Made by a program: the position numbers and the translations under genes
The notes under the pieces: model-generated
Database searches by the model: none
Seen by the model: the letters and a program-made list of their open reading frames with translations, nothing else
What the model was told of the DNA's origin: nothing
Source of the DNA: Bacilli bacterium
Lineage (GTDB): Bacteria > Bacillota_I > Bacilli_A > RFN20 > CAG-826
Direction: 5' to 3'
NCBI GenBank assembly: GCA_045132035.1
Contig: JBGURM010000001.1
Coordinates: 1-52,491, forward strand
DNA: 52,491 nt
Shown here: one piece after another, positions 3-49,873 of the stretch
How the letters are laid out: each line of letters opens with the position of its first letter
Numbering within the stretch: position 1 is the first letter of the stretch

Positions 3-1103
3 GCAGATGCGATATGTCACCCAATCGTTTCTAATTTTGGTAAAACCGCTTCTAGCGGGGCCTTTACTGCTTTTATTTTCTCAATTAGTTTACTTAATCG
101 TGTCGATAAATATTTGGCTCTTCTCGCCTCAATTTCCGTTATTAGCGATATGATGCCGCTTTTAGACTATAATCGTAATTTATTACGTGCGATGTTTAAA
201 GAATATGAAGTCGGTGAATTTTACGCGGTTGACCTTTTAGCAGACCATGAAAAAATAGATGAAGTAGTGATCGGAATGAAAATCGCTCCTAGAATCAATT
301 CAATTGGCAGATTAATCGAAGATGACTCAATCAATAAGATTGTTAAATATTTCGTCACGAACGATGAAAGTTATATTTTAAACTACTATTCCTTTATTCT
401 TCAGGTTAATGAAGAAAGAAAGATGTATTCAAAAGTTGATTTAAGTGAATTAAATATTTCTGGAAACGAAGATGCGATTATTATTAAAGGAAATTATAAA
501 GAAGGGATCATTGGACTCGTCGCTAATTCGATCATGGTCAAATATTTAAAACCAGTAATTGTCTTTGCTCCAAGTTTAGATAATTCCCTTAAAGGAAGCG
601 CAAGAGCGCCAGAAGGATATGACATCGTTTCTGTCTTTAATGAACTTACTAATTATCTACTAACTAGTGGTGGTCACGCCTCCGCTGCAGGCTGCTCAAT
701 TAAAGAGGAAGACTACGATGAATTCAAAGAAAAATTCACTGAGATAATTTCTAAACAAGAAATTAAGAAGATTGAACATCCATATATTGATATCGGAATG
801 AGTGAATTAAGTGTCGAGAATTATCATCTCATTAATTCTTTTTCACCTTTTGGAGAAAGTTGGCCAGCTCCAAACTTCAGATTAAGACATATTAAAGTTG
901 ATACCTTAACTTATTCCAAAGATCATAAACATATCGTGACAACTTTAGGCAATAAACAAAAACTCGTTTTCTTTAATTATCCAGAGGATGAATTAGTAAA
1001 TAAAAGATTTATCGATGTCATCGGTTCTTTATCGCTTAAATCATATAAAGGATATGTCTATTTAGAGTTCTCCGCGAAAGAATTTGCTGATTGCGATAAT
1101 TAA
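3..1103 (+). CDS. recJ: Single-stranded-DNA exonuclease RecJ (5' truncated by window edge)
   Basis: Frame is open from base 3 (ADAICHP...SSGAFTAF). Has DMMPL, APRINSIGR, KGSAR and the DHHA1 motif GGHASAAG; lies upstream of rel as in Firmicutes. Confidence 0.9.
   Translation, partial: ADAICHPIVSNFGKTASSGAFTAFIFSISLLNRVDKYLALLASISVISDMMPLLDYNRNLLRAMFKEYEVGEFYAVDLLADHEKIDEVVIGMKIAPRINSIGRLIEDDSINKIVKYFVTNDESYILNYYSFILQVNEERKMYSKVDLSELNISGNEDAIIIKGNYKEGIIGLVANSIMVKYLKPVIVFAPSLDNSLKGSARAPEGYDIVSVFNELTNYLLTSGGHASAAGCSIKEEDYDEFKEKFTEIISKQEIKKIEHPYIDIGMSELSVENYHLINSFSPFGESWPAPNFRLRHIKVDTLTYSKDHKHIVTTLGNKQKLVFFNYPEDELVNKRFIDVIGSLSLKSYKGYVYLEFSAKEFADCDN
647..663 (+). repeat. Phased direct repeat TACTAA-ttatc-TACTAA (copy A, inside recJ)
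   Basis: TACTAA at 647 and 658 (11-bp period); the 17-mer is identical to the reverse complement of copy C. Confidence 0.7.
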
Positions 1104-1127
1104 ACTACAATTTCCATAATTAATAAC

Positions 1128-1163
1128 AAACGTTCCCGTTTTACAATTTTGGGGCGTTTTTTT
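1128..1163 (+). terminator. Probable intrinsic terminator after recJ
   Basis: Imperfect stem aaacgttcc...ggggcgttt followed by a T run. Confidence 0.55.
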
Positions 1164-1204
1164 ATCTTTAATTGATTAGCAAAAAATATTAAAATATTTT
1201 CGTT

Positions 1205-3424
1205 ATGGAAACTGAAAACAAACTTCTAGTTAATGGTGGCTATCCACTTCATACATTTGAACAGCTCCAAGACGTTTATCAAAATTACATCACTAATGAA
1301 GATGATCGTAAGAATATTGAAAGAGCGTACGCTTTTATACTAGAAAAACATAAAGACCAATATCGTCGTAGTGGAGAGCCATATTATCACCATCTTATAG
1401 AAGTTGCCTATATCTTAGCGAATCTTCAAGCTGGACCAGCCACAATTGTTGCTGGTTTATTGCATGATGTTGTTGAAGACACTGATGTAACAGTGGAAGA
1501 TGTTGAAAAGATGTGGGGAAGCGACGTCGCTAAACTCGTCGACTCATTAACCAAAATTCAAAGATTAAAACTTTCTAAAATAGAAAGTGAAGATTTCGAA
1601 GCCGAAGATCATCGTAAGATTTTCATCGGAATGGCCAAAGACATACGTGTCATTATCATTAAACTCGCTGATCGATTACATAATATGCGTACACTCGCAT
1701 CACTTAAGCCAGAAAGACAAATTGCTCTTTCTAAAGAAACTAAAGAAGTATTCGTTCCAATCGCTCACCGTTTAGGTCTTGATAATATCAAGTGTGAACT
1801 TGCAGATTTATGTTTAAAATATCTCGAACCTGAAAGATATAACGAAATTGTTTCTTTACTTTCTAAGAAAGAAAAGTCATTAAAGAAATCGCTTAATACT
1901 TTCCAAAAGAAATTAGCGGATATTCTTTTTGCCCATAATATTCCATTTGATATCTTCTCAAGAGTAAAGTCCATCTCTTCAATTTATGAAAAGATGTATG
2001 TCAAAGGACATACTTTTGATGAAATATACGACATTCTCGCTCTTAGAATCATTACTGACACCGAGATGAGATGTTATGAAATCTTAGGTTTAATTCACCA
2101 AAGTTATAAACCTGTCCCAATGAGATTTAAAGATTATATCGCGATGCCTAAACCAAATATGTATCAATCTTTACATACTACGGTTATTTCAGGTGATGGA
2201 AACTTCTATGAAGTTCAAATTAGAACTAAATACATGGATGAAATTGCTGAAGCTGGTGTTGCCGCTCACTGGGCATATAAAGAAAAGAAGGGTTATGACC
2301 CTAAAGAAGAACAAAAAGAAATTGAAAATAAATTACATTGGTTTAGAGACTTTGTCTCTATGAGTAATGAAGAACATGATACGGCCTCTGAATATATGGA
2401 GACCTTAACTCATGATATCTTCGAAGCTAATGTCTATGTCTTTACACCTAACGGTAAAGTCATCGAATTAACAAATGGTTCAACTCCAATTGACTTTGCT
2501 TATAGAATCCACACCAAAGTCGGTGATAGTGCGGTTGGAGCGATTGTTAACGGAAGTATGGTTCCACTTAACACTGTCTTAAAGACTGGTGATATGGTGG
2601 AAATCAAAACTAGTAAATCTTCTCCGGGACCAAGCGAAGGTTGGCTGGAATTTGTTAAGACAAATTTAGCGAAGAGCCAAATTAAAAAGTTCATTGCTAA
2701 AAAGAACGCTGATCTTGTTAGAGGAGAGAAAATTGCCAAAGGCAAACAATCCGCATTAGATGCCTTTAAAGACCGTGGAATCGAAGAAGCAGAAATGCTT
2801 GAATTACTCGATGATGAGAAATTATTAGAGCATTTCGAGATGAGTTCATTAGATGACTTATTCATCGGAATTACTAATCGTAAGCCAACAACAACCGCGA
2901 TTATTGATTTCTTAGGAATCAAGAAGCCACTTGTCTTACCAACAGGTAAAGCAAAAGTTAGAAATGAAGGAGATTCTTCCTGTCCAGTTTACTGTAAAGG
3001 GGCCGATCGAATCGCTATTCAACTCGCTAACTGCTGCACTCCAATTCCTGGAGATATGATTAAAGGATATATTACCAAAGGTAAAGGTATTACAGTCCAT
3101 CGACATAACTGTCCAAATATCAAAAATGACGAGAAGAGATTGATTGATGTTTACTGGAAAGAAGACATTGAATATTCAACTTATCCAGTCGATATTGCTT
3201 TAGAAGCAAATGATAGACCAAATCTTCTTATCGACATTATGAATACAATGAGTAGTGCGAAAGTCACCATTAGTTCGATTCACGCACAATTATTACATCA
3301 AAATCGTTCAATCACATTAGTGAAAATCACCATTTATGTCAGTGATTTAAAACGATTAAATGATATATTTAATATCTTACAAAACGTCAAAGGCGTTTAC
3401 GAAGTTAAACGCGTCATCCATTAA
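1205..3424 (+). CDS. relA: Bifunctional (p)ppGpp synthetase/hydrolase Rel
   Basis: HD motif LHDVVED, synthetase motifs RFKDY, YQSLHT and EVQIRT, then TGS, CC and ACT domains; 739 aa. Confidence 0.97.
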   Translation: METENKLLVNGGYPLHTFEQLQDVYQNYITNEDDRKNIERAYAFILEKHKDQYRRSGEPYYHHLIEVAYILANLQAGPATIVAGLLHDVVEDTDVTVEDVEKMWGSDVAKLVDSLTKIQRLKLSKIESEDFEAEDHRKIFIGMAKDIRVIIIKLADRLHNMRTLASLKPERQIALSKETKEVFVPIAHRLGLDNIKCELADLCLKYLEPERYNEIVSLLSKKEKSLKKSLNTFQKKLADILFAHNIPFDIFSRVKSISSIYEKMYVKGHTFDEIYDILALRIITDTEMRCYEILGLIHQSYKPVPMRFKDYIAMPKPNMYQSLHTTVISGDGNFYEVQIRTKYMDEIAEAGVAAHWAYKEKKGYDPKEEQKEIENKLHWFRDFVSMSNEEHDTASEYMETLTHDIFEANVYVFTPNGKVIELTNGSTPIDFAYRIHTKVGDSAVGAIVNGSMVPLNTVLKTGDMVEIKTSKSSPGPSEGWLEFVKTNLAKSQIKKFIAKKNADLVRGEKIAKGKQSALDAFKDRGIEEAEMLELLDDEKLLEHFEMSSLDDLFIGITNRKPTTTAIIDFLGIKKPLVLPTGKAKVRNEGDSSCPVYCKGADRIAIQLANCCTPIPGDMIKGYITKGKGITVHRHNCPNIKNDEKRLIDVYWKEDIEYSTYPVDIALEANDRPNLLIDIMNTMSSAKVTISSIHAQLLHQNRSITLVKITIYVSDLKRLNDIFNILQNVKGVYEVKRVIH

Positions 3425-3435
3425 GGAGAAACAAC

Positions 3436-4731
3436 ATGGAACAAATCAAAAATGTAAAAGGCACTCACGACATCTTCGGAGAAGAGAATAATGCGTATGA
3501 ACGCGTTGAATCTTTGATGAAGTCCATCGCTGAGATGTATGCATATAACGGAGTGAGACCTCCAGTTATCGAATATAATTCTGTATTCGTTAGAGGAGTA
3601 GGAGAAGGTAGTGACATTGTTAGAAAAGAAATGTATACATTTCCTGATAAAGGAGATCGCTTATTAACTCTTCGTCCAGAATTCACTGCTGGAATTATGA
3701 GATTAGTAGTTCAAAATAAGCTCTATGCGACTAGTGAATTACCAATCAAACTCTATTATTTAGGTCCTGTCTTTCGTTACGAAAGACCACAATTAGGAAG
3801 ATACCGCCAATTCAACCAATTTGGCGTTGAATCAATCGGTAACAATTCCCCAATGAACGATGTTGAAGTTATCGTTTTAGCGTATACCATCCTTTGTTCA
3901 TTAGGATTAGAAGGTGTAACAATTAAAATCAACACTCTTGGAGATGAAGCTTCTAGAGACAATTACCGTAAAGCTTTAAGAGAATATTTTAAAGACCATA
4001 TTGAAAATATGTGTGAAGATTGTAAGAGTAGATATGAGCTCAATCCTTTACGTATTTTAGACTGTAAAGTTCCTGAAGATCGTCCAGTCATTGATAAAGC
4101 TCCAAAGATTGGAGATTATCTTTCTGAACCAAGTAAAATCCGTTTTGAACAAATCCAAGACGCTTTAAGCGTTCTTCAAATTCCATATGAAATTGATGAA
4201 GGACTTGTTAGAGGATTAGATTATTATTCAGAGACTGTCTTTGAATTCCATTACACATCTAAAGCAGGTGTTGATTACGGGGCAATTGGCGCTGGTGGAC
4301 ATTATGGCAAGCTGATGCTTGAACTCGGTGGACCAGAACTCCCAGGAGTGGGATTCTCTTTCGGAATTGAAAGAATTGTTTCAGTCTTAAAAGATGATGG
4401 CTTATTAGATGACACTCAATCATCTTTAGATGCTTATATCATGCCTTTAGGAGATGAATCTGTATTAGTGGGAGAGGAAATTGCTGTCTTACTTCGTAAT
4501 GCAGGTGGATATCGCGTTGATATGTGCTTTGATAAAACCAAACTTGGCAATATGTTTAAACGCGCAACAAACAAGAATGCAAAATTTGCAGTAATCATCG
4601 GAGAAGAAGAAATCAAAAATGATTCTGTAATTGTTAAAAATTTAACAACACAAGAACAAATGTCAGTGAAAATCGATGACCTCATCGATAAGTTCGATGA
4701 TTTGTTTAGTGAAGAGGAGACTCAAGAATAA
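3436..4731 (+). CDS. hisS: Histidine--tRNA ligase
   Basis: LRPEFTA, FRYERPQ.GRYRQF, LVRGLDYY, GFSFGIER; SD aaggag. Confidence 0.97.
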   Translation: MEQIKNVKGTHDIFGEENNAYERVESLMKSIAEMYAYNGVRPPVIEYNSVFVRGVGEGSDIVRKEMYTFPDKGDRLLTLRPEFTAGIMRLVVQNKLYATSELPIKLYYLGPVFRYERPQLGRYRQFNQFGVESIGNNSPMNDVEVIVLAYTILCSLGLEGVTIKINTLGDEASRDNYRKALREYFKDHIENMCEDCKSRYELNPLRILDCKVPEDRPVIDKAPKIGDYLSEPSKIRFEQIQDALSVLQIPYEIDEGLVRGLDYYSETVFEFHYTSKAGVDYGAIGAGGHYGKLMLELGGPELPGVGFSFGIERIVSVLKDDGLLDDTQSSLDAYIMPLGDESVLVGEEIAVLLRNAGGYRVDMCFDKTKLGNMFKRATNKNAKFAVIIGEEEIKNDSVIVKNLTTQEQMSVKIDDLIDKFDDLFSEEETQE

Positions 4732-6464: not shown

Positions 6465-6490
6465 TCAATTACATACTCAGTATGTATAAA

Positions 6491-6518
6491 TACTAATTTG
6501 ATACTAATTATTTACTAA
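6491..6518 (+). repeat. Phased direct repeat (TACTAA-N5)x3 (copy B)
   Basis: TACTAA at 6491, 6502 and 6513, between aspS and tkt. Confidence 0.8.
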
Positions 6519-6535
6519 CAAAGGAGAAAGTATTA

Positions 6536-12921: not shown

Positions 12922-14109
12922 ATGGCAAAAGTAATTGTCCACATCGATTTAAATGCTTTTTTTGTTCGCTGCGAAGAAATACGTGATCCATCTTTAGAAA
13001 ATAAAGCGGTGGCGATTGGTCATGTCGGAAGAGCAGGAATTGTTTCAACATGCTCATACGAAGCAAGAAAATATGGGGTAAGAAGTGGAATGCCAATGAA
13101 TAAGGCAATTAAATTATGTCCTCATCTACTCGTCATTCACCCTGATTATCATTTTTATGTTTCAATGAGTCATCAATTTAGAAATTATATCCGTTCCATT
13201 ACTCCAGACATCGAAAAGGCCTCAGTGGACGAGTTATATGCGGATTTTACTGACGTTGTTAAAAAAGAAAAAGATGTCATCAAATATTTTAAGATGATTC
13301 AAAACACTTTGTATGAAACAACCGGCTTAAAGTGCTCTATTGGAGTTGCTCCCACTAAATTTTTAGCGAAGATGGGAAGCGATTATCAAAAGCCAATGGG
13401 CTTAACTATTATTCGTAGAAGAGATATCAAAAAGATTTTATATCCTTTACCAATCGAAGATATGTTTGGAGTTGGTAAAAAGACCGCTCCTAGACTCAAA
13501 GAAATGGGAATTAAAACGATTGGAGATCTCGCTAATAGTTTGAATAATAACGATGAAAAAGTATTAAATACTTTAGGTAAGTTTTCTGAAGAGCTCAAAG
13601 ATTGGATTAATGGAAAAGGGTCAGATAAAATCATTACCGAATATGATGATCCTAAATCAATCGGTAACTCAACCACTTTAAAAGAAGACACTGACCGATA
13701 TGATGAAATTAGACCAGTTATTGAAATGCTCGCTATGGAAGTATCTGAAAGAGCAAAAAAAGAAAATCGAATCGGTAATACGATTCAAATCATGGTCAAA
13801 GACACTAATTATAAGGCACATAATAAATCTTTTACTTTTTCTAATCACACGAATAACGCGAAAGATATCTTTAAATATGCGATTAAGTTATATGAAGAGA
13901 ACTTTTTAGATATGCTTATACGAGCGGTAGGTGTCACTTTACAAAATCTCATCGATATCAAAGATATGAAAGTACAAATGACTTTCTTTGACTATGAGAT
14001 GCATGAAGAAGAAAGTAAAACTAAATTACTAATAAATGATTTAAATAGAAAGATTAAAGGTAAGCCTTTAAAAAGAGCGAGTGAGGTAAAGAAGAATGGA
14101 CATCGTTGA
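12922..14109 (+). CDS. dinB: DNA polymerase IV
   Basis: HIDLNAFF, SYEARKYGV, SVDE catalytic motif, KFLAKMGSD; clamp-like QMTFF near the C-terminus. Confidence 0.95.
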   Translation: MAKVIVHIDLNAFFVRCEEIRDPSLENKAVAIGHVGRAGIVSTCSYEARKYGVRSGMPMNKAIKLCPHLLVIHPDYHFYVSMSHQFRNYIRSITPDIEKASVDELYADFTDVVKKEKDVIKYFKMIQNTLYETTGLKCSIGVAPTKFLAKMGSDYQKPMGLTIIRRRDIKKILYPLPIEDMFGVGKKTAPRLKEMGIKTIGDLANSLNNNDEKVLNTLGKFSEELKDWINGKGSDKIITEYDDPKSIGNSTTLKEDTDRYDEIRPVIEMLAMEVSERAKKENRIGNTIQIMVKDTNYKAHNKSFTFSNHTNNAKDIFKYAIKLYEENFLDMLIRAVGVTLQNLIDIKDMKVQMTFFDYEMHEEESKTKLLINDLNRKIKGKPLKRASEVKKNGHR

Positions 14110-14992
14110 CGCGCTTGATTTATATAAGCAATATCTTCTAGTAGAAAAAGGTTTATCAAGAAACACTGTTTCATCTTATGAAGATGATTTAAATAGTTTC
14201 TTTAGTTTTTATAAAAACTTAAATATGGAGAAAAAAGAAGTAAGCGACTTAGCAAGTGAGGACCTTCAATCTTTTTTGAATCATGAATTAAGTGAAGGAA
14301 AACATGCTTCGACCGCTTTAAGAAGATTATCTTCCATCAAAGGCTTCTACGCTTTTTTAACTAAAGAAGGATATTATCATGGAGAAATGCCTGATATTGA
14401 CCCTCCAAAGATGGAACAAAGGCTTCCAAACTGTTTATCCATTGAAGAAGTAGAGCTACTTCTTGACGCTCCAAATATGAATTCGCCGAGCGGAATAAGA
14501 GATAAAGCGATGTTAGAGTTAATGTACGCTAGTGGACTCCGTGTTAGTGAATTAGTTTCTTTGGAAAAGAAAAATGTTAATCTACAAAAAGGAATTGTCA
14601 CAATCTTTGGTAAAGGAGCAAAAGAAAGAAAAGTCCCGATGGGAGATTTCGCTTTAGATTATGTCGTTAAATATCTTAACGAAGTAAGAGACCAATTCCA
14701 TGGAAGTAAATCTAAGTATCTATTTTTAAATAGAAGTGGCAAACCAATTAGTCGAATCTATTTCTTTAAGCAAGTAAAGAAGTACGCAATGCAAGTTGGA
14801 ATTGATCCAGAAACTATCTCTCCTCATACTTTAAGACACTGCTTCGCTACTCATATGTTAGAAGGCGGAGCTCAACTACGAGCGGTTCAAGAAATGCTTG
14901 GTCACACAAACATTGCAACCACTCAAATCTACACTCATATCTCAACAAAACGAATTATGAGTGCATATGATTTGTTTATAAACAAAAAATAA
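14096..14992 (+). CDS. xerD: Site-specific tyrosine recombinase XerD
   Basis: LMYASGLRVSEL, GKGAKER, HTLRHCFATH, QEMLGH, TTQIYTH; upstream of deoB, as for B. subtilis ripX-drm. Confidence 0.9.
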   Translation: MDIVDALDLYKQYLLVEKGLSRNTVSSYEDDLNSFFSFYKNLNMEKKEVSDLASEDLQSFLNHELSEGKHASTALRRLSSIKGFYAFLTKEGYYHGEMPDIDPPKMEQRLPNCLSIEEVELLLDAPNMNSPSGIRDKAMLELMYASGLRVSELVSLEKKNVNLQKGIVTIFGKGAKERKVPMGDFALDYVVKYLNEVRDQFHGSKSKYLFLNRSGKPISRIYFFKQVKKYAMQVGIDPETISPHTLRHCFATHMLEGGAQLRAVQEMLGHTNIATTQIYTHISTKRIMSAYDLFINKK

Positions 14993-18072: not shown

Positions 18073-18663
18073 ATGGAAAAAACTTTAATAAAATATATAA
18101 AAAAGAATAATAGTGTGAACGTCGAGGAGATTTCGGCCTCAAGGAACAAAACTCTCCATTTTGAAGGTGATGAATGTAAAAAAGTTGGCATAATAATCTC
18201 AGGGAAGGTTAATATTGTTTCTTATTATTCTGGTGGACAAGAAGTCGTCTATAACGAGTTAAGCAAGGGTCAAATGTTTGGAAGTAACTTAATCTATTCG
18301 TCAAATCCATTTTTTAGAGGAGACGTCGTCGCCATTGAAGAATCAGTTATTGGATACGTTTCTAAAAGCGACTTACTAAAAGCGTTATCAAGCGATCAAG
18401 ATTTTCTAGAGCTCTATTTAAAACAGCAATCAGATTTTAGTAAGCAACTCAATTTTAAAATCAAGTTACTGACAATAAGCTCCGCAAAAGACAGAATTAT
18501 CTATTATCTTACATTTAATAGAAATCAAATCTCATATAAGTCAGTTACTAAGCTCGCTAAAGAATTATATTTGACCAGGGAGACACTAAGTCGAACAATG
18601 TATAAAATGGCCAAAGACGGCGAGATCAAAATAGAAAACAAAGTAATTACTCTGAACATGTAA
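18073..18663 (+). CDS. Crp/Fnr family transcriptional regulator
   Basis: cNMP-binding-like barrel (EGD, SGKV, GQMFG) and C-terminal HTH with recognition helix TRETLSR. Confidence 0.9.
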   Translation: MEKTLIKYIKKNNSVNVEEISASRNKTLHFEGDECKKVGIIISGKVNIVSYYSGGQEVVYNELSKGQMFGSNLIYSSNPFFRGDVVAIEESVIGYVSKSDLLKALSSDQDFLELYLKQQSDFSKQLNFKIKLLTISSAKDRIIYYLTFNRNQISYKSVTKLAKELYLTRETLSRTMYKMAKDGEIKIENKVITLNM

Positions 18664-18670
18664 ATAAAAA

Positions 18671-18687
18671 TTAGTAGATAATTAGTA
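18671..18687 (-). repeat. Phased direct repeat TACTAA-ttatc-TACTAA (copy C)
   Basis: TTAGTA at 18671 and 18682 on the + strand. Confidence 0.75.
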
Positions 18688-18706: not shown

Positions 18707-18715
18707 TGTGGATAA
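18707..18715 (-). promoter_or_regulatory. Consensus DnaA box with two degenerate neighbours
   Basis: TGTGGATAA (= TTATCCACA on the - strand); GGTGGAAAA at 18688 and TGTGGATTT at 18722 in the same orientation. Confidence 0.5.
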
Positions 18716-18792: not shown

Positions 18793-18820
18793 AGTTAACA
18801 TAATGGACATTATGCGAAGT
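18793..18820 (-). other. dif: dif chromosome dimer resolution site (XerC/XerD)
   Basis: Minus strand reads ACTTCGCATAA-TGTCCA-TTATGTTAACT, an 11-6-11 layout resembling E. coli and B. subtilis dif; intergenic, at the gene-orientation switch. Confidence 0.9.
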
Positions 18821-22043: not shown

Positions 22044-22071
22044 TACTAAATAACTACTAATTTTCTACTAT
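22044..22071 (+). repeat. Phased direct repeat (TACTAA-N5)x3 (copy D)
   Basis: TACTAA 22044, TACTAA 22055, TACTAT 22066; partly overlaps a hairpin downstream of parC. Confidence 0.75.
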
Positions 22072-22100: not shown

Positions 22101-24728
22101 TTAATCCAAATCATCGAAGATTGAGATCTGTTCATAACTGCCTGGTTCTTTATCAGATTCTTCAGCTTGATTATCGTTATCTTTTTCCTCTTCAGCTGGT
22201 TCAATTACTTGAGGTTCGACTGGTGAAGATTCCTTTTCGATGATTGGATGAGAGACGTTATGTTTTCCAACATTAACAATCGTTGTATCAAAGACGAAAC
22301 TGATATGTTGTTTCAAAGTCATCCGATCAATATTCTTCTTTGCGTATTGAGCCTCAGTGTTTGTTAAGTCATTTACCTCTAGAGGTAAAATTACGCGGTC
22401 ATTGAGATATAGATTTAAAGTGAATGATTCTCTACTATCTGGTTTCATTGCAAAGATAACACTATGAGGATCGCCTTTGAAGCTTTGTAATATTGTTTGA
22501 ACCTTGCCTAAACGGTTAGTTCTAAAGAATTTCGTGCTATCAGTTACGCGTAGGTGTCCCTTATTAGTAATTAAGACAATCTTACTTCTTTCATCTCTTT
22601 CAAATGCAAGAAGAGCGACAGCTTGATTACTGCCTAATGAGGAGATTGATTTAACTCCACCTGCTTTATTTCCGATGATTGTTAATTCATTCTCGTTATA
22701 GAGAGAACAATTACCGTTATTAGTTATAACTAATAAGTCACTATCTCCACTAATGAGTTTTAAGTCAGCTACTTGGTCATTAGTGAGTAGTTTCATGTAT
22801 TTTGCAGGTCTATTTCTTTTAACGAGTTCGATTTGAGAAAGAGCCATACGTTTGATTTGACCAAATTTAGTTAAAATAGCTAAATATAAGTCATCTCACA
22901 TCTCGCTAATAGTCATTGCTCTAATGATTTTTTCTCCACTAGCAAGAGTGACAAACTCATTGATATGAGTTCCTTCGTCTTTCCACTTATTATCGGTGAG
23001 ATTATGGACTCCAATACAAGTATAGTTACCTAAATTTGTAAAACAAATTAGGTAATCAGTGGTAAATGCTTGTCCAATTCCCACCATCATATCGCCATCT
23101 TTTAGGCCAGGCATACCACCATTAGAGCTACCATAGCTCCTTAAAGAGCTACGTTTTAAATAGCCGTCATATGTGACAGTAACCATAACTTCTTCTTTAG
23201 CGATTAATTCACGTTTATCAATTTCTTTTGTTTCGCCTTTTTCGATGATTTGAGTTCTTCTATCATCGCCATATTTATTGGCGATCGCTTTTAAATCACG
23301 AACGAGAACACGATTGAGTTTTTCTGGATCTTCAATGATTCCATGTAATGTTTCGATATCATTTTGAAGTTGAGTTTTCTCTTTTTCCAAAATCAATTCA
23401 TCGGTGTGACTTAATTTGTATAAAGGCATGGTAACAATTGCTTCTGCTTGAGCGTCAGTTAGTTCATATCTTTTAATCAAATTGGCCTTAGAATCGGCTT
23501 TATCATTACTTTTTCTAATGATTTCAACGATTTCGTTGATGTTAAGGGCCGCTAAAATTAAGCCTTCAACAATATGGAGTCGATCACTGAACTTTTTGAG
23601 ATCAAATTTGCTTCTACGAGTAATGACATCAACTTGGTGAGCGATATAAGCATCGACAAAATCGAGTAAACTGAGGGTTTTTGGTCTTCCATCCACAATA
23701 GCGACCATATTCGCGGTATAACCAGTTAATAAATTGGTTTTCTTCATTAAATATTGAAGAATGAGGTCCGCTTTTGCGTTCTTTTTGACATCAACAACGA
23801 TTCTAATTCCTTTATAATCAGATTCATCTCTAACTTCAATGATGCCATCAATCGCTTTTGAGTGCCTAATTTTGTCTATTTCATAGACAAGTTGAATTTT
23901 CACCACTTTATAAGGAATTTCTGTGATGATAATTTGATTGATATCCTTTTTTTCAACGATTTCAGTTTTAGCGCTTACTTCAATTCTACCTCTACCTGTT
24001 TGATAGATACTTTCTAGGCCTTGTGACTTATAAATATAGCCTCCGCCAGGAAAATCTGGGCCTTGAACAAATTGCATTAAATCTTCAACTGTTGCGGTCT
24101 TATGACCAATACGATAAATCGTCGCATCAATGACTTCTTTTAAGTTATGAGGTGGGATTTCAGTTGCTAAAGCAACTGCGATACCTTCTGTTCCGTTCAC
24201 TAATAAGTTAGGGAAACGGGATGGTAAAACGATTGGTTCATATTCGGTATCGTCAAAGTTAAGCTGCATATCAACAGTTTGTTTTTCAATATCGACGATG
24301 AGTTCGTTTGATAATTCAGAAAGTCTACTTTCTGTATAACGGTACGCGGCTGGAGAGTCGCCATCGATTGAGCCGTTATTACCTTGGAAGTCAATTAATG
24401 GATATCTAACTTTCCAGTCTTGACTCATTCTTGCTAAAGCTTCATAGATTGAGGTGTCACCATGTGGGTGATAAGTTCCCATGACCGCTCCAACAGTATG
24501 AGCGCACTTTTTGGTTGGTTTATTAAAAGTGTTTCCACTTTTATACATCGAAAAAATGATTCTTCTTTGAACTGGTTTTAATCCGTCTCTAACATCTGGA
24601 ATTGCACGATCTTGAATGACATATTTCGCATAAGTTGCGTATCTATCACTCATTACATCTTCAAGAGGTTCAACGGAAATATTTTCTTGAATAATTTCTT
24701 CTTCGACGTTTTCTTTTTTCTTCGCCAT
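22101..24728 (-). CDS. parC: DNA topoisomerase IV subunit A, interrupted by one in-frame TGA at 22896-22898
   Basis: RAIPDVRDGLKPVQRR, HPHGD, AAYRYTE; no GyrA box. ORFs 22896..24728 and 22101..22847 are in the same frame (...ISEM*DDLYLAILTKFGQIKRMALSQ...), 875 codons in total. Confidence 0.9.
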
Positions 24729-27523: not shown

Positions 27524-27551
27524 TTAGTATAAAATTAGTAGTTAATTAGTA
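27524..27551 (-). repeat. Phased direct repeat (TACTAA-N5)x3 (copy E)
   Basis: TTAGTA at 27524, 27535 and 27546 on the + strand. Confidence 0.8.
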
Positions 27552-27572
27552 TATTTAAACCAATGTGAATAG

Positions 27573-27606
27573 AGTTTTCCACACAATCGGAAAACTTTTA
27601 TTTTTT
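27573..27606 (+). terminator. Intrinsic terminator after plsY
   Basis: agttttcc-acacaatc-ggaaaact followed by a T-rich run. Confidence 0.65.
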
Positions 27607-27701
27607 CTTGATTATATCTTGTGCTTTTCATTGACTTTTATATTGAATAGTTAGTGATGTGGATTATTTTAAGGTCCGCTACCACTACTTTGAATCAAGA
27701 C

Positions 27702-31498: not shown

Positions 31499-32359
31499 AT
31501 GAATGTTGCATTAATCAAACCACAAGGATTTTGTTCAGGAGTCACTTTAGCGGTTAAGACTGCCTTGAAAGCTAAAGAAGAGAATCCTAATAAAAAGATC
31601 TATATCCTTGGAATGCTCGCACATAATCAAATACTCATTGATGATTTATCTAAAGATGGTTTTATAACTTTATTCGGTGATGAATTTGAAGAGATCAAAA
31701 AACTCTACAAAGGAGATGTTTTAGTTTTTACAGCGCATGGTCATGATGAAAAATTAGATGAAATCGCTAAAGAAATCGGTCTAATTACATATGATGCAAC
31801 CTGTTTTAAAGTCAAAGATAACTTAAGAAAAATTAAAGAAGAAATTAACGCTGGTCACCAAGTAATTTATATCGGTCAATCAGGACATAAAGAAGCAAAT
31901 GCCGCTTTAGCGGTTTCTAAAAATGTATCATTATATGATACAAAACTACTAATTAACTACTATTTAATTACTGATGAATCTCCGCTTGTCATTAATCAAA
32001 CGACCTTAAATTTCTATGAGCTAAATAAGTATCATGAAGATATAAAAAGTCACTTCCCAAAGGCTCGAATTGAAAACGAAATCTGTAACGCAACTAGATT
32101 AAGACAAGAAGCGATTTTAAAGATTGATAAAGACACTGATTTGATTGTTATTGTTGGACACGAGAAATCTAGTAATACCAACAAACTATATGATATTGCT
32201 TTAGCAAATTACCCTAACGCTCAAGTTGTTATGGTTAATAGTCTAAGCGAATTAAAAGAAATTAACATTGAAGGCAAAAGAAAAGCCGCTGTTGGATCAG
32301 GGGCTTCTACTCCACAATATATTGTGGATGAAATCTATAATTACTTAATTAGCAAATAA
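31499..32359 (+). CDS. ispH: 4-hydroxy-3-methylbut-2-enyl diphosphate reductase
   Basis: GFCSGV, TAHG, DATC, QTT, ICNAT..RQ, SSNT, GASTP. Confidence 0.95.
   Translation: MNVALIKPQGFCSGVTLAVKTALKAKEENPNKKIYILGMLAHNQILIDDLSKDGFITLFGDEFEEIKKLYKGDVLVFTAHGHDEKLDEIAKEIGLITYDATCFKVKDNLRKIKEEINAGHQVIYIGQSGHKEANAALAVSKNVSLYDTKLLINYYLITDESPLVINQTTLNFYELNKYHEDIKSHFPKARIENEICNATRLRQEAILKIDKDTDLIVIVGHEKSSNTNKLYDIALANYPNAQVVMVNSLSELKEINIEGKRKAAVGSGASTPQYIVDEIYNYLISK
31947..31974 (+). repeat. Phased direct repeat (TACTAA-N5)x2-3 (copy F, inside ispH)
   Basis: TACTAA 31947, TACTAT 31958, TACTGA 31969; the 16-mer TACTAATTAACTACTA is shared with the reverse complement of copy E. Confidence 0.7.
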
Positions 32360-36888: not shown

Positions 36889-36916
36889 TACTAATTTATT
36901 ACTAATTTTCTACTAA
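36889..36916 (+). repeat. Phased direct repeat (TACTAA-N5)x3 (copy G)
   Basis: TACTAA at 36889, 36900 and 36911; the third unit contains the glyS stop codon. Confidence 0.8.
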
Positions 36917-40880: not shown

Positions 40881-42077
40881 CTACGAATTCTTACTTTCGA
40901 ACTCTAAAGAGTTGATTAATTTCGCTTTGACGTGATCAAATTCTTCGTCTTTAGAAGAGTATTCGATGATTTTCGCGAATTGTTGTTTTAAAAACACGCT
41001 GATACATAAATAGAAGACAACAAAGGTGATATTGAATGTCTTTGTTAATGTAGTTGTTAGAATGATTGCTAATAGCAATAGTCCAACTTCTAAATATGTA
41101 ACGATGTTTCTACTAAACCCTAACTTATACGATTCATCTCTCGCATTGGTGACCAGTAGTTTGAACTGTTGATCGTTTTCTGAATCCAAAATTTCTTTTT
41201 CTTTGTCCACGACTTCTGCTTCTTTATTTTTAAAATATGGACCATAAACAAGGACTTGAAACGCCGCTAATAGGAGAGGCAAGAAAACATAAATCGCATT
41301 AATAGAAGCGTTCATTACCAAAATGATTGAAATAAAGACAGCGATTAAACAAGAATAGATGAAATTAGGCAAGATAGTTAAAGATATAACTCGATATTTT
41401 TCAATTGTAATGAATATTTCATTATAGTCTTTTTCTTCACCTTTAAATTGATAAGAGAAGATATTTTCATCCATCCTTTTCATCGCTCCCACTAGATTAC
41501 CTCTAAAGATGATTTCAAAGATTAAAAATAAGGCGAAAAAGATAATTGGGAGATAAATTTGAGGATTACTAACAAAATATGTACCAAGAAGTAGACTTAT
41601 TCCACTTAGGATTTGAAATATAGGGAGAGATATCTTGTCCTTTTTAGAGATAAAATCTGGAAATACTTCTTTACATTTTGTTTTTGTGAACTCAAACACC
41701 ACTAACGCTCTTTGATTCCATTCTTTAAAGAATAATTCAGTGTTAATCTTTCTTTTTCCGATTTCTGGGTCATAAACTGTGACAAATCTTGGGTTAGCTT
41801 TTAAAACAAGCACACTATGACGTTGTTTCTTCCTTTGTAGAGTGACGACGATTGGAAAGGTACTACATTTAAATAGTTCCTCTGGTTGAGAAATCTTAAT
41901 TCCTCTAAGAGTCATTTGATGCTCTTTAGCAATATTAGTAAGTTCAAGAAAACTATAAGCATCGCCTTTAGTAGATTGAAGATAAAGATAGTTTCGATCC
42001 TTATGATAATTTGCGAGCATCATTTTTAGGCAAGCAAAACCGCAATCTTGTTCACCTAATTGGGATATAAAATACAT
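40881..42077 (-). CDS. C39 cysteine-peptidase domain plus membrane domain, no ATPase domain (398 aa)
   Basis: Q....DCGFACL, HSVLV, VYDP, then about six hydrophobic segments; start moved to ATG 42077 after SD aaggagg. Confidence 0.8.
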   Translation of the reverse strand: MYFISQLGEQDCGFACLKMMLANYHKDRNYLYLQSTKGDAYSFLELTNIAKEHQMTLRGIKISQPEELFKCSTFPIVVTLQRKKQRHSVLVLKANPRFVTVYDPEIGKRKINTELFFKEWNQRALVVFEFTKTKCKEVFPDFISKKDKISLPIFQILSGISLLLGTYFVSNPQIYLPIIFFALFLIFEIIFRGNLVGAMKRMDENIFSYQFKGEEKDYNEIFITIEKYRVISLTILPNFIYSCLIAVFISIILVMNASINAIYVFLPLLLAAFQVLVYGPYFKNKEAEVVDKEKEILDSENDQQFKLLVTNARDESYKLGFSRNIVTYLEVGLLLLAIILTTTLTKTFNITFVVFYLCISVFLKQQFAKIIEYSSKDEEFDHVKAKLINSLEFESKNS

Positions 42078-42170
42078 TTGTTCCTCCTTCTGAAGAGAAA
42101 AAGTCCCTTCACTATAAATAAGAGGAGGAAAATGCGATTTTTTTGAAAATTTTCTTAAACTTTTTTTGAA

Positions 42171-42196
42171 AAAATTAAAAAGACCCATAGGGTCTT
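42171..42196 (-). terminator. Probable terminator after dnaJ
   Basis: aagaccc/gggtctt stem with a T-rich tail on the - strand. Confidence 0.6.
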
Positions 42197-45220: not shown

Positions 45221-45233
45221 AATTTATTTCCTC

Positions 45234-45791: not shown

Positions 45792-46815
45792 CCGATTGGC
45801 CTCCTTTGTCGTTAAAATACTTTTCAAGTTCTTGAGAGAGATATTCTAGGGCTGAAAGAGCTTTGTCATAGTCCATTCTTTTTGGTCCCACTAGTGTGAT
45901 GGTGTTCTCACTATCAGGTCCAATACGAACTTTTGTGGTGACTATTGCGACATCTGGGTTTCCTTCAACATCTCCAATATTAATTGCTGTGTCAGAATCA
46001 CTTTCGAGTTGATAATCAACTTTCTTTAATAATGAAGCATTATCGAGTAATTTCATTACTCTCATCAATGCATCAGTATCATTTTTGAATTCTGGATGAT
46101 TGAATAATTCGTTTCGTCCATATAAAGAGAGACGATCACCAGCGAATCTAAGAAGTGATTCTAAGATTGCTTGATAGACAACATCATGAGAGACGATGTA
46201 ATCGGAGAGAACTGGTTTTAAAGATTCCATCTTGTCCACTAGTTCACTAACTGGTGTTCCCTTAAGTCGATCATTGAGGAGTTGAACGCATTTCACTATT
46301 TCATCAGGTTTGATGCTTTCATCCAAGATGAAGGTTTTGTTTTGAACATATCCTCTATCAGTAACAAAGATCGCGGTGATTGTGTTTTCGTTAATTGGAA
46401 CGAGCTGGACGCTTGCTAAGTGCTCAGCGTTTTCATCTGGTCCCATAACGATACTGACAAGATTAGTCATATGAGATATAATCTCACAGCTTCTTTTGAT
46501 TACTTCTTCAACCGATTGGATTTTGGAATCGAGAACTGATTGAAGTGAATAACGGATACTTTCGTTTAACTCTTTATCTCTAAGATGTTGACAATAATAT
46601 TCATATCCTTTTGAAGAAGGAACACGTCCAGCGCTCGTATGAGGCTTTTCGATATATCCCATCTTTTCTAGAGCAGACATTTCATTTCTAATGGTCGCAC
46701 TACTATATGGAAGTTGATATTCTTCAATTAATGTATGACTACCAACTGGTTCAGCAGTTTTGATGAAGTATTCAACAATCATTTTAAGAATTGTTTCACT
46801 ACGGGTAAGTGACAT
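45775..46815 (-). CDS. hrcA: Heat-inducible transcription repressor HrcA
   Basis: EPVGS, SSATIRNEM, PHTSAGRVPS, VGPKRMDY; start moved to ATG 46815 after SD aaggag. Confidence 0.96.
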   Translation of the reverse strand: MSLTRSETILKMIVEYFIKTAEPVGSHTLIEEYQLPYSSATIRNEMSALEKMGYIEKPHTSAGRVPSSKGYEYYCQHLRDKELNESIRYSLQSVLDSKIQSVEEVIKRSCEIISHMTNLVSIVMGPDENAEHLASVQLVPINENTITAIFVTDRGYVQNKTFILDESIKPDEIVKCVQLLNDRLKGTPVSELVDKMESLKPVLSDYIVSHDVVYQAILESLLRFAGDRLSLYGRNELFNHPEFKNDTDALMRVMKLLDNASLLKKVDYQLESDSDTAINIGDVEGNPDVAIVTTKVRIGPDSENTITLVGPKRMDYDKALSALEYLSQELEKYFNDKGGQSDGGEN

Positions 46816-46831
46816 AATCTGCTCCTTCCTT

Positions 46832-46858
46832 TTAGCACTATTCACTCTCAAGTGCTAA
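46832..46858. promoter_or_regulatory. CIRCE element 1
   Basis: TTAGCACTA-N9-AAGTGCTAA. Confidence 0.92.
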
Positions 46859-46862
46859 TTCT

Positions 46863-46890
46863 ATTATATTCCAAGTGTTAGCACTGTCAA
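46863..46890 (-). promoter_or_regulatory. Sigma-A promoter of the hrcA-grpE-dnaK-dnaJ operon
   Basis: TTGACA-16 nt-TATAAT on the - strand. Confidence 0.85.
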
Positions 46891-46904
46891 CAAATAAGTG
46901 CTAA
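46878..46904. promoter_or_regulatory. CIRCE element 2 (overlaps the -35)
   Basis: TTAGCACTG-N9-AAGTGCTAA. Confidence 0.92.
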
Positions 46905-46959
46905 AAATAAAAATTACCTAATAGGTAACTTTTTCAAAAATCATAAGAAAATATGTAAT

Positions 46960-48063
46960 TTAATCAAATAAATCGACAATAATTTTGTCTAAAATCATCA
47001 TTCCTTCGAAGGTTGCAGTGAGGTGATTGTCCTCTAATATTAGGTGTCCACTATTGATGTAAGAGTCGATTATTTCTTTTTTACTAATATATAAATCCTT
47101 ATTAAATAATTTATTAAAGAGAGCGAGATCTAAACCTTCACTAGTTCTTAGATTTAATAAAATCTGATATTCATATAAGTCTTTAGCCGAGACTTTTTCC
47201 TCTATTTTTTCATTAATACCTTTTAGGTATAAAGACAAATTATCAGTGTTTTTATATCTAATGTCATCGATATAGCCTGACGCTCCTAGTCCGATTCCGT
47301 AATAATGTTCATTTCTCCAATAAGTGAGATTATGTTCGCTCCTATAGTTAGGTTTTGCCCAGTTTGAGACTTCATAATGTTCATAACCATTTTTACATAA
47401 TAAATCATTCACCATTTTATATGCGTCATAAGAGAAATCATCGCTTGGAGGAAGGATGTTATTTAAGAAAAACACTGTGTGTTCATGAACAGTTAAGGAA
47501 TAGCAAGAAATATGATTTGGATTTAAAGACAAGATATTATAAATATCTTTTTCTAACATTTTAATAGAAACATTAGGTAAGCCTAATATCAAATCTAAGT
47601 TGATGTTATTAATTCCTTCTTTTCTTAAATTATTAACCGCATTAATGACATCATTAAAAGTATGATGACGATTAATTGCTTTTAACACTGTGTCATCTGT
47701 GGATTCCACTCCGATGGAGACACGATTAACTCCATATTCTTTCATCATTTTTATCTTTTGTAAAGATAATGATTCTGGATTACATTCAAATGTATATTCG
47801 GTTACACCTTTAGAAAATGGTTCAATCATTTTTAATAATTCTAAAAACAAATCATCTTCTAAAGAAGTTGGGGTTCCTCCTCCAACATAGATTGTTTTAA
47901 GTGAAGTGGAAGGTACTTCACTATTAAGTTGTTCTTTGAGCTTTTCTAAATAAGAAAGAGCGAAATTACGAAAATACTGCAACTTCGTAAAGTCACAGTA
48001 ATCGCATATAGATTCGCAAAAAGGAATATGAATATATAAGGAGTTAGCCTTATTCTTCTTCAT
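46960..48063 (-). CDS. hemW: Radical SAM heme chaperone HemW
   Basis: LYIHIPFCESICDYCDF, GGGTPT, YEVSNW, HNLTYW (HNxxYW). Confidence 0.92.
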   Translation of the reverse strand: MKKNKANSLYIHIPFCESICDYCDFTKLQYFRNFALSYLEKLKEQLNSEVPSTSLKTIYVGGGTPTSLEDDLFLELLKMIEPFSKGVTEYTFECNPESLSLQKIKMMKEYGVNRVSIGVESTDDTVLKAINRHHTFNDVINAVNNLRKEGINNINLDLILGLPNVSIKMLEKDIYNILSLNPNHISCYSLTVHEHTVFFLNNILPPSDDFSYDAYKMVNDLLCKNGYEHYEVSNWAKPNYRSEHNLTYWRNEHYYGIGLGASGYIDDIRYKNTDNLSLYLKGINEKIEEKVSAKDLYEYQILLNLRTSEGLDLALFNKLFNKDLYISKKEIIDSYINSGHLILEDNHLTATFEGMMILDKIIVDLFD

Positions 48064-48271
48064 CCTTATATTCTTCTACCGCTTTAGCGGTTTCTTCATC
48101 TTCGATTGGTTTAAGGACACGATCCATCTCTTCGTGAAGGATTTGTTCTTCAGTTGGTTTATCATCATGTTTTAAACGTGGTTTTAAATATAAATAAATC
48201 AAGAAAGCGACAACGGCAATAAGGACAGCCGCTCCAAGGACTACGAGGAAGGCAATTAATTCAGTTGACAT
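48050..48271 (-). CDS. Small hypothetical membrane protein (73 aa)
   Basis: One N-terminal hydrophobic helix and an acidic tail; fills the gap between the Fic-like gene and hemW and overlaps the hemW start. Confidence 0.75.
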   Translation of the reverse strand: MSTELIAFLVVLGAAVLIAVVAFLIYLYLKPRLKHDDKPTEEQILHEEMDRVLKPIEDEETAKAVEEYKDEEE

Positions 48272-48280
48272 ATTTTATTC

Positions 48281-49789
48281 TCACTTTCTTTCTACTGGTG
48301 TGTAGACAAATTTCTTTCCAACTTGTTCTTTTCGGTAGTAACCGAACTCTACAAGTTGATCCATTGATGTACGAGCGGTTTCATAAACGCATTTGACTGC
48401 TTTCTTATATTGGTCGATTGTGTAATACATGCCAAGAGTGCAGTGTCTAGCGTAGAAATACGCTTGTCCTTTTTTAAGACGTACGTCTAATTCTAATAAA
48501 TGTTTTTCTAATCTTAAAGCAGTTTTTTCATCGAGTTCTGGTGGAATGAAGTTGATTGCAAGTCCAGAAGGATGATTTTCAACAGGTTTCACAACTTGTT
48601 GTGGCTTTTCAATTTTCTTTTCTTCCACGACCACTTTTTCAACTGGAACTTCTCTAATGATTTCTCTCACTACTTCTCTAACAACCTGAGGCTGTGGTTG
48701 TGGTTCTTCTTTTTTGACTTCCTCTTTCTTTTCTTCAACAGGTTCACTAAATAGTGAAAGTTGTTCCGCTCCATTGCTAGATTCTTCGTGAGTAGATGGT
48801 TCATCATCCAAGCGATAGAAATCTTTTTTAAGCATTTCAGATGAGAATTCAACGATTCCATCAAGCATTTTATTGATGATTCTTTCCGTTGAATCAAGAG
48901 CGTAAGTCAAATAATAAGTGACATCGGAAGTTGCTTGAACTTCATCGAATAAACGATGAACTTCATTTTGATTATCGTTTAATAAAGCTTCAAAAGGAAT
49001 ATTAATTGCAAATTCCCCAAGACGGTCATGGGCTAAAACAGATTTCGCTAATAAAACAGCAATCTCATCATTATAGTCTTTAAATGGTCTAACAAATTCT
49101 ACATAGTAGAATGTAATTAATGATTTGTTTAATGAACTAAGTTGTTGCCTGCTTAAGAAATTAAATAGGCCATCCATCATTTGGGAAATTAACGCAGCTG
49201 GGGCACTCTTATAGCGGCGAGAAATAACAGCAGTTGAGTTAGGATCTTCACTATCAAATTCACGATAGAAATAGGTTAATTCGTAATTGCCGGTAACCGC
49301 ACTATATAAATCGGATAAATAATCAACATCAATAGTCTTTGAATAATTGTTTTTAATGTATTTAAGAGCTTCGTAATAGTTAGCGATATCAAGGTTTGAT
49401 TTCTTTCCTTGAACGATTTGTCTAATGATATCTTCATCACTGACGAGGTTCTTTTTAACGGCGACGTTTTGTAAACATTTGATAATGTTTGTTTGTTCAA
49501 AATAACTAGCGTCTCCATTGACTCTATTAAGTTTATTGTATTCGTTAATTAAGTTAAGAATTCTACTATCGACACGGTCACTCTTATTAGCGACAGTTGG
49601 ACATAAACACACTCTTAATTGATTTTTATCAATTCCTTTAATTAAAAGATATGTGTTGAATCCTGAACGGTACGCTAAAATCTTGTCCCAGATTCCGTCG
49701 ATAACCGAAATCTTTAATTCATTTCTAACTTCATTTTTTGTCGCGTATCTTTTTTCTGTGAAACGCACACCGAGCTCATTATTTACCAT
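48281..49789 (-). CDS. Fic-like protein with degenerate active site, QLSLF motif and C-terminal winged helix
   Basis: RPFKDYNDEIA aligns with HPFxDGNGR; C-terminal YTIDQY...YETARTSMDQLVEFGYY...GKKFVY. Confidence 0.65.
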   Translation of the reverse strand: MVNNELGVRFTEKRYATKNEVRNELKISVIDGIWDKILAYRSGFNTYLLIKGIDKNQLRVCLCPTVANKSDRVDSRILNLINEYNKLNRVNGDASYFEQTNIIKCLQNVAVKKNLVSDEDIIRQIVQGKKSNLDIANYYEALKYIKNNYSKTIDVDYLSDLYSAVTGNYELTYFYREFDSEDPNSTAVISRRYKSAPAALISQMMDGLFNFLSRQQLSSLNKSLITFYYVEFVRPFKDYNDEIAVLLAKSVLAHDRLGEFAINIPFEALLNDNQNEVHRLFDEVQATSDVTYYLTYALDSTERIINKMLDGIVEFSSEMLKKDFYRLDDEPSTHEESSNGAEQLSLFSEPVEEKKEEVKKEEPQPQPQVVREVVREIIREVPVEKVVVEEKKIEKPQQVVKPVENHPSGLAINFIPPELDEKTALRLEKHLLELDVRLKKGQAYFYARHCTLGMYYTIDQYKKAVKCVYETARTSMDQLVEFGYYRKEQVGKKFVYTPVERK

Positions 49790-49856
49790 ATTTTAGTACC
49801 TACTGCTCTTATTATATTTGAGATTTTCTTGTAAAACAAGTTATTACCTAAAAATC

Positions 49857-49873
49857 TACTAATTTTCTACTAT
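49857..49873 (+). repeat. Phased direct repeat TACTAA-ttttc-TACTAT (copy H)
   Basis: Units at 49857 and 49868; the second contains the lepA stop; identical to 22055-22071. Confidence 0.7.

Follow-up and report, generated by a model that had tools for sequence, protein, structure and literature searches.

TACTAA direct-repeat arrays around dif and a pseudo-Fic/winged-helix protein as a candidate terminus-marking system in uncultured Bacilli

Introduction

Several of the systems closest to the one considered here act at terminus-region sites on bacterial chromosomes. MatP, a ribbon-helix-helix protein, binds as a dimer to matS, a palindromic site of 13 bp whose copies extend over about 800 kb. 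The sites of RTP/Ter and Tus/Ter also lie in the terminus region, and RTP is a winged-helix protein of which several protomers bind each site. To our knowledge, RTP is confined to close Bacillus relatives and MatP to some gamma-proteobacteria, and terminus marking in most Firmicutes is an open question. Here we analyze a stretch of 52,491 nucleotides from an uncultured member of the Bacilli (GenBank assembly GCA_045132035.1, contig JBGURM010000001.1), hereafter the window, which is the entire contig C1 of a 1.65-Mb assembly (116 contigs, 97% complete). It carries eight arrays, A to H, of the unit TACTAA-N5 repeated with an exact 11-bp period around the Xer recombination site dif, and it encodes a candidate binding protein that joins a Fic-like domain to a winged helix-turn-helix (wHTH) domain.

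Comparison with described systems shows partial likenesses throughout. As with MatP and matS, the sites are dispersed around dif and mostly outside promoters, and the candidate joins a small DNA-binding domain to a putative interaction domain; here, in contrast, the sites are phased direct repeats that extend over about ±40 kb and are densest beside dif, and the protein is of the Fic plus wHTH type. RTP and Tus have no homologue here, and the orientation pattern of the arrays cannot form a working trap. The two-domain architecture is that of SoFic/CbFic2-type Fic proteins with a C-terminal winged helix (3eqx, 8cil), but the catalytic motif is replaced in 41 of 41 sequences and a linker of about 80 disordered residues is inserted. 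Protein sites at a fixed distance from a Xer core are found in the plasmid sites cer and psi (PepA, ArgR, ArcA), whereas the arrays stand on the XerD-like side of a chromosomal dif with FtsK-gamma, would involve other proteins and have further sites kilobases away. ParR/parC of R1, TubR/tubC and AspA have 11-12-bp direct repeats along one face of the helix, to which protein binds cooperatively; those are plasmid partition sites next to their own operon, whereas the present ones are chromosomal and centered on the terminus. Finally, the B. subtilis XerD sites used for SMC unloading resemble the XerD half of dif, unlike the TACTAA unit, which resembled neither dif arm when compared with both.

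We argue that the arrays are probably docking sites for a DNA-binding protein encoded nearby. Arrays and pseudo-Fic/wHTH protein may together constitute a new system that marks the terminus and dif, most likely by organizing or positioning the dif region, a reading to which we assign a probability of roughly one half. Our literature search found no description of the TACTAA motif or of the candidate protein, and no paper tying a Fic protein to dif or to the replication terminus.

Results

Regular arrays confined to the dif-bearing contig

A previous reading of the window from its letters and open reading frames (the sequence-only reading) had listed eight TACTAA loci, and their coordinates and strands were all recovered as given (Table 1). 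The nine exact TACTAA-N5-TACTAA pairs that it had counted lie at six loci (647, 6491/6502, 18671, 22044, 27524/27535 and 36889/36900), and allowing one mismatch adds three more, at 22055, 31947 and 49857. Dinucleotide-preserving shuffles of the window contain on average 0.01 exact pairs, none of 100 shuffles reaching nine, and 0.43 one-mismatch pairs. The preference for an 11-bp period also withstood scrutiny: over the whole assembly, exact TACTAA pairs number nine at spacing 11 and three at spacing 22, with 0-4 at each of the other spacings from 6 to 44. Long words are indeed common to distant arrays, namely to A and C, to E and F, and to D, G and H.

Table 1. Positions of the arrays and associated features in the window (distances are relative to dif where a sign is given)
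Feature	Position	Strand	Details
Array A	647..663	+	2 units, in recJ; exact pair
Array B	6491..6518	+	3 exact units, aspS stop to tkt start; toward dif, -12.3 kb
Tyrosine recombinase, XerC/D type	14096..14992	+	3.8 kb from dif; Pfam Phage_integrase and SAM-like N domain
Crp/Fnr-like protein	18073..18663	+	Cyclic nucleotide-binding domain and HTH_Crp_2; adjoins array C and dif
Array C	18671..18687	-	2 units, between convergent genes; 8 bp past Crp-like gene stop, 105 bp before dif; away from dif
DnaA box	18707..18715	-	Perfect TTATCCACA, between array C and dif
dif	18793..18820	+	11-bp arm, 6-bp center, 11-bp arm
Array D	22044..22071	+	3 units, last TACTAT; 30 bp past stop of ORF resembling the ParC C-terminal domain, 107 bp to yqeG start; away from dif, +3.25 kb
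Array E	27524..27551	-	3 exact units, between convergent genes; 5 bp past plsY stop; toward dif, +8.7 kb
Array F	31947..31974	+	3 units (TACTAA, TACTAT, TACTGA), in ispH
Array G	36889..36916	+	3 exact units; overlaps glyS stop, 19 bp before dnaG start; away from dif, +18 kb
Candidate binder P0003 (pseudo-Fic/wHTH)	48281..49789	-	502 aa; Fic-fold N domain 1-325, linker about 334-410, winged helix 421-498
Array H	49857..49873	+	2 units; putative operator for autoregulation of the pseudo-Fic/wHTH gene, 68 bp upstream of it

The gene context described earlier, with two arrays inside coding sequence and two between convergent genes, was borne out, and the other four (B, D, G and H) occupy short spacers that separate co-directional genes. 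Each intergenic array of the window begins at most 30 bp from the stop codon of the upstream gene or overlaps that stop, and a hairpin followed by a T-run, resembling a plsY terminator, lies just past array E (27552-27610). We rejected an element acting at the RNA level, since some arrays run with transcription and others against it, and arrays are also found where genes converge. We likewise rejected a function as all-frame stop codons: a TAA or TAG does arise in each frame of three units, yet this fails to account for the restriction to the terminus or for the genic arrays. Direct hexamer repeats with an 11-bp period share the geometry, and the geometry only, of OmpR/PhoB-type boxes; the candidate binder lacks a receiver domain, unlike response regulators of that type.

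All nine exact pairs of the assembly lie on C1. With one mismatch allowed, C1 (52 kb) has 12 pairs at spacing 11 and 0-2 at each other spacing from 8 to 15, and in the remaining contigs (1.6 Mb) spacing 11 accounts for 14 pairs and each of the other spacings for 12-31, which represents background only. The uniform genome-wide density that the sequence-only reading had named as evidence against a terminus-specific role was thus not seen, and the arrays share with matS a restriction to the terminus region. In a relative with a long contig (G072; genomes, contigs, loci and families carry the handles G, C, L and f), 15 of 20 exact pairs fall within 78 kb around dif on a contig of 879 kb, and satellite arrays are spread over roughly ±40 kb around dif. 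A mis-binned contig is ruled out, because the congeners that we fetched have the same arrays in the same gene order.

The terminus itself is well defined in the window. Genes lie on the plus strand up to 16.2 kb and mostly on the minus strand beyond, with a change in the sign of the GC skew there, and the cumulative GC-skew maximum is 59 bp from dif. Of 10 loci examined for this maximum, seven have it within 400 bp of dif and three have it 2.2-2.7 kb away. The dif arms show 0-2 mismatches across 13 fetched loci with a secure dif assignment, and we take the left arm to be the XerD-like one by comparison with E. coli dif. Besides the recombinase gene of Table 1, the genome has a second Xer paralogue (contigs C53/C22) and encodes an FtsK with a gamma domain.

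Conservation in related genomes

Conservation in relatives, a prediction of the sequence-only reading, is extensive. Exact pairs are present in 22 of 22 congeners (2-9 each), compared with 0-4 per genome for a reversed-pattern control, the hand-summed totals being 129 for the motif and 24 for the control. Most of the listed matches are on one contig per genome, and several congeners share inter-site distances of about 3.37, 5.47 and 9.4 kb. In the three fetched congeners (G007, G001 and G022), arrays B, C, D and E occupy the gene junctions known from the window with unchanged orientation; F, G and H are additionally present in G007 and G001, and the G022 contig ends before them. Arrays C to G are also present in G024, which belongs to another genus. 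An array facing dif at about -12.5 kb, like B, recurs in G041 and G174, and one like E, in the same place and orientation (+8.5 to +8.8 kb), in G007, G001, G024, G174, G041 and G099. Among 201 genomes of the order, the motif is well above control in families f1, f3 and f7 and at control level in f2 and f8 (12 vs 11 and 8 vs 30, hand-summed).

For the two arrays within coding sequence, the sequence-only reading had suggested a test for constrained synonymous positions. Array A is not conserved: the orthologous recJ codons of G007, G001 and G022 carry no array (0/3), and A is species-specific, possibly a young or chance site. Array F is conserved, its ispH codons (CTA CTA ATT AAC TAC ...) having the same nucleotide sequence in 8 of 10 g1 and g3 genomes. 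These include two consecutive CTA leucine codons, although CTA makes up only 7.3% of leucine codons in the genes of the window. Synonymous sites nearby are variable, and other genera do not conserve this segment of the protein.

Fixed placement of an array and a DnaA box beside dif

The most regular arrays are those nearest to dif. In all 14 loci with a secure dif, from 11 genera of f1, f3 and f7 (the g45/g53 loci being treated apart), an array stands on the side of the XerD-like arm and points away from dif, the last TTAGTA unit (TACTAA on the other strand) starting 108-132 bp before that arm. The distances cluster near -110, -122 and -131, about one helical turn apart. G036, G096 and G026 have a second array 150-300 bp past the other arm, also directed away from dif. 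The 15 g45/g53 loci were picked solely for several exact pairs close together, and a dif-like site lies inside the pair cluster in 14 of them, the 15th being cut by the contig end. These 14 loci have 6-10 pairs per roughly 6-kb locus, all within about 350 bp of dif and on both sides of it, and the half-sites of g45 are often arranged as a palindrome, TTAGTACTAA.

A DnaA box commonly accompanies the array. The perfect box between array C and dif is one of 17 in the assembly and has the same consensus as a cluster of eight boxes adjacent to dnaA on contig C106. A box with at most one mismatch is found between array and dif in 11 of the 14 loci, in three families, with constant orientation and at -84 to -116; it is perfect in eight. 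The background is 0.24 per 600 bp, counting both strands. Besides that of the window, the loci with the box include those of G007, G001, G022, G036, G033, G096 and G053 (L010, L017, L014, L001, L007/8, L035 and L037). None of the 14 g45/g53 loci has a DnaA box beside dif.

Such placement could reflect an accessory system for Xer recombination, in which dif-side arrays and the protein, perhaps with DnaA, would set the timing or direction of XerC/D recombination. The conserved distance and helical phase relative to one dif arm, the intervening DnaA box and the dense two-sided clusters of g45 all fit this account. We nevertheless consider it unlikely: arrays 3-40 kb distant cannot act on the Xer synapse, the ordinary FtsK with its gamma domain and the two Xer paralogues mean that standard control is present, and the arrays flank the XerD-like side, whereas the accessory sequences of plasmid sites flank the XerC side. 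Families f4 and f5, moreover, encode the protein yet lack fixed-distance sites next to dif (0/5, against 14/14 in f1, f3 and f7).

Other lineages may use different dif-flanking sites. Two f8 genomes without TACTAA arrays have other short repeats less than 400 bp from dif, of AATGTA type in G037 (L182) and in the form of AAAGTACTTT-type palindromes in G045 (L183), and a 14-bp direct repeat adjoins dif in G040 (L197, f5). The Crp/Fnr-like protein encoded next to array C was considered as the array binder and set aside: its gene is next to dif only in family f1 (g1 and G024) and is missing there in G036 and G026. Proteins of the Crp family bind palindromes.

A pseudo-Fic/winged-helix protein with an array in its promoter

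The sequence-only reading had attributed the sites to an undescribed protein. That protein need not stay unknown, as the window itself encodes a strong candidate. Pfam gives no significant match for it (Fic, E 0.087), and its Fic/Fido fold emerges from more sensitive comparisons: a profile of 60 homologues matches Fic chains in the PDB (best 4rgl, E 3e-17), and Foldseek with its AlphaFold2 model (predicted local distance difference test score 85.6, with the linker of about 80 residues disordered) retrieves 8cil and 3eqx (both with E about 3e-7) in alignments that span about 450 columns. The histidine of the catalytic motif HxFx(D/E)GNGRxxR is present in 0 of 41 aligned homologues, where the consensus reads [KR]PFxxxN[ED]E..A.L..K. 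Judged from its sequence, the candidate binder is a catalytically dead Fic-fold protein.

Its winged helix is near-invariant, with a YETARTSMD helix and 14 invariant columns among 39 sequences; mean column identity is 61%, against about 28% identity in the N domain. A near-invariant reading head fits a half-site that is unchanged across the order. A winged-helix profile searched against PDB sequences found nothing below E 0.17, and a fold search returned generic MarR/ArsR-like and centromere-binder matches, none at E <= 0.001, with AspA and TubR among the best (E 0.004-0.03, non-significant).

In another account, the arrays are sites at which condensin (SMC-ScpAB) is unloaded or blocked at the terminus, in the manner of XerD in B. 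subtilis. Sites do cluster at and around dif in both orientations, XerD is described as a sequence-specific SMC unloader at the terminus region in one report (PMC12322038), and the archaeal chromatin protein TrmBL2 matches the fold of the winged helix weakly (E about 0.02, non-significant). The winged-helix matches on which a chromatin role would lean are not significant, however, the analysis brought up no evidence on SMC in these genomes, with no search aimed at it, and we consider this account improbable.

The protein family counts 498 representatives at E <= 0.001 among 1.84 billion clusters, and 409 loci in species-representative genomes. Outside the order, two of 265 sampled genomes of the class match the winged-helix profile (G278:C27:26217-26426 and G384:C3:40326-40544), both of family f11 and in 301-aa ORFs; f11 may have a related DNA-binding domain on a different N-terminal part. 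In the congener G018, the binder homologue (G018:C12:29883-30053) has an in-frame TGA ahead of the winged-helix part, which may mean that the gene is broken or split, or may be an error of sequencing.

We fetched 40 homologue loci from more than 20 genera, 39 of which had a usable upstream region. TTAGTA-N5-TTAGTA with at most one mismatch is found on the gene strand in 27 of the 39, 50-107 nt before the start, and on the opposite strand in one. It is kept where the gene and dif sit on different contigs (e.g., G026, G047 and G096). From this we infer that the candidate protein controls its own promoter via array H. The arrangement parallels that of tus and rtp, each of which is described in a review (PMC10331603) as a terminus-region gene with a site in its own promoter.

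The distribution of the protein follows that of the arrays in most families. Homologues are present in 65/65, 63/66 and 30/31 genomes of f1, f3 and f7, the families that have the operator in most loci checked and arrays at dif. They are rare in f2, f6 and f8 (1/11, 0/1 and 3/12, the last being weak matches), and arrays are absent at dif there in 5 of 5 genomes, whose dif regions (2-3 kb) contain 0-1 one-mismatch pairs. The exceptions are f4 and f5, with homologues in 2/2 and 11/12 genomes, the operator in 4 of 4 usable loci and no arrays at dif. This pattern indicates that protein and operator are older or more widespread than the dif-centered arrays. G028 departs from the other f4/f5 genomes with six array matches, all on the dif contig.

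Array orientation and the fork-trap question

We surveyed orientation at 12 loci with 84 arrays (64 intergenic and 20 genic), using crude ORF calls. The contrast that the sequence-only reading drew with FtsK-orienting polar sequences (KOPS) and SpoIIIE recognition sequences (SRS) stands: these are genome-wide and strongly polarized, and no array lies off the dif contig. Orientation is not random, since beyond 1 kb 42 arrays point away from dif and 25 toward it (16 vs 4 in G099, whose dif assignment is uncertain).

This bias brings in the possibility of a fork trap, in which the arrays would act as Ter sites with polarity and the protein would be a contrahelicase; Tus and RTP would then be joined by a third system of independent origin. 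The prevalence of arrays pointing away from dif would suit it, as would the opposite orientation of the inner arrays on either side of dif in G036, G096 and G026, the GC-skew switch, which 5 of 10 loci have within about 100 bp of dif, and the terminus location of a gene with a site in its own promoter. There is presumably also a likeness between the half-site and part of the B. subtilis Ter core. The geometry, on the other hand, rules out a strict fork trap. Were forks blocked at the dif-facing end of an array, none could reach parC-parE-plsY between D (+3.25 kb) and E (+8.7 kb); were they blocked at the opposite end, dif itself would be shut in by the paired arrays of G036, G096 and G026. In either case a segment could not be replicated, and at least some arrays must be other than strong polar barriers; weak pausing of forks would be the milder alternative. 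Arrays B and E, perfect three-unit arrays conserved in the genus (E across several f1 genera), have the wrong orientation, pointing toward dif, and the two opposed groups of sites that let forks enter but not leave are not found.

Homology adds nothing to a fork trap. The window's own 97%-complete genome has no RTP (PF02334), Tus (PF05472) or MatP (PF06303), with control searches matching RTP in B. subtilis and Tus and MatP in E. coli, and RTP is absent from the top 50 fold matches of the winged helix. A contrahelicase is therefore a poor prospect in our judgment. The same searches uphold the view that the arrays belong to none of these known systems.

Other features of the window

ParC (22896-24728, minus strand) has 610 aa and no C-terminal domain. 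A separate 248-aa ORF downstream of parC (22101-22847, minus strand) matches the C-terminal part of GyrA/ParC weakly (NCBIfam E 3e-10 to 5e-9; Pfam DNA_gyraseA_C E 0.002), and the split layout recurs in G007, G022, G001, G024, G026 and G033. A 435-aa ORF with a C39 peptidase domain (40881-42188, minus strand) lies between ybeY and dnaJ in an otherwise standard housekeeping run.

Discussion

The proposal that the TACTAA loci are sites of a chromosome-organizing protein is upheld in part. They are conserved, non-random and restricted to the terminus, as is typical of the sites of a site-specific DNA-binding protein, and the organizing role is the inferred part of the proposal. In the mechanism that we favor, the pseudo-Fic/wHTH protein would dock on the arrays (TTAGTA(G)-N4 when read on the other strand) with one winged helix per 11-bp unit, so that 2-5 protomers would line up head to tail on one helical face, and through array H it would regulate its own promoter. 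In three families the sites stand beside dif at a constant helical phase relative to the XerD-like arm, and a DnaA box usually lies between the two. Because the arrays lie beside dif, scattered over roughly ±40 kb and nowhere else, the system would mark the replication terminus; most likely, it would organize the dif region or hold it in position while segregation of the chromosomes is completed. The Fic-like domain could serve as a protein-protein adaptor, providing tethering of the kind known for MatP or RacA.

A more specific version, which we put forward tentatively, has the dead Fic/wHTH protein polymerizing on the 11-bp repeats and building, with DnaA at the conserved box, a nucleoprotein structure by dif with satellites over about ±40 kb. 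Through it, the completion of replication would be linked to dimer resolution, decatenation or division, and the system would be unrelated to MatP, Tus and RTP.

Several observations weigh against a terminus-marking function. Five of five f4 and f5 genomes have the protein, its recognition helix and the operator, with 0-1 pairs in the 3 kb around dif, and genome-wide counts are at control level in four of the five. The protein thus does not have a dif-centered role throughout its range. Since its link with the sites rests on promoter conservation and co-distribution, the arrays could also be bound by a different factor with the same distribution, which would do no more than regulate the candidate gene. 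The relatives are all metagenome-assembled genomes, many from rumen or gut, and kin are not independent; the clustering of arrays at the terminus in f1 could in part be inherited synteny. The orientation survey, with its crude ORF calls and the doubtful dif of G099, brings a further point: among intergenic arrays, 30 just upstream of a gene are in operator orientation and 11 are in the opposite orientation only, with 23 upstream of no gene. Given the bias of 30 to 11, some arrays could be ordinary operators.

Taken to its end, this last point would make the protein an ordinary autoregulated transcription factor, whose regulon (tkt, yqeG-nadD, dnaG-sigA and its own gene) lies near the terminus through conserved gene order. 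That the operator in its own promoter is the most widespread site, and nearly the sole one in f4 and f5, agrees with such a role. Yet the 23 intergenic arrays upstream of no gene include every dif-proximal one, where genes converge, and the 6-10 pairs around dif in g45 have no promoter to serve. Array F is kept inside coding sequence, many arrays are internal to operons and only 0-20 bp from a start codon, which is not promoter distance, and no site is found elsewhere in 1.6 Mb. We therefore regard transcription control as a very unlikely sole function.

Under the terminus-marking reading, sequence analysis yields a testable pair, an 11-bp repeat and a small, well-folded candidate binder, together with a genomic phenotype: sites only around dif, in fixed phase beside it, across dozens of genera. 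Although the organisms are uncultured, repeat and protein can be made synthetically and studied in vitro, or with B. subtilis or E. coli as the host. For these dead Fic proteins it offers a first cellular role to look for, and the conserved DnaA box at the terminus raises the question of what part DnaA plays there. If the more specific version with DnaA is true, no earlier Fic-fold pseudoenzyme would be known to act in chromosome architecture, and the module beside dif would be the first accessory one bound by protein at a chromosomal site of this kind.

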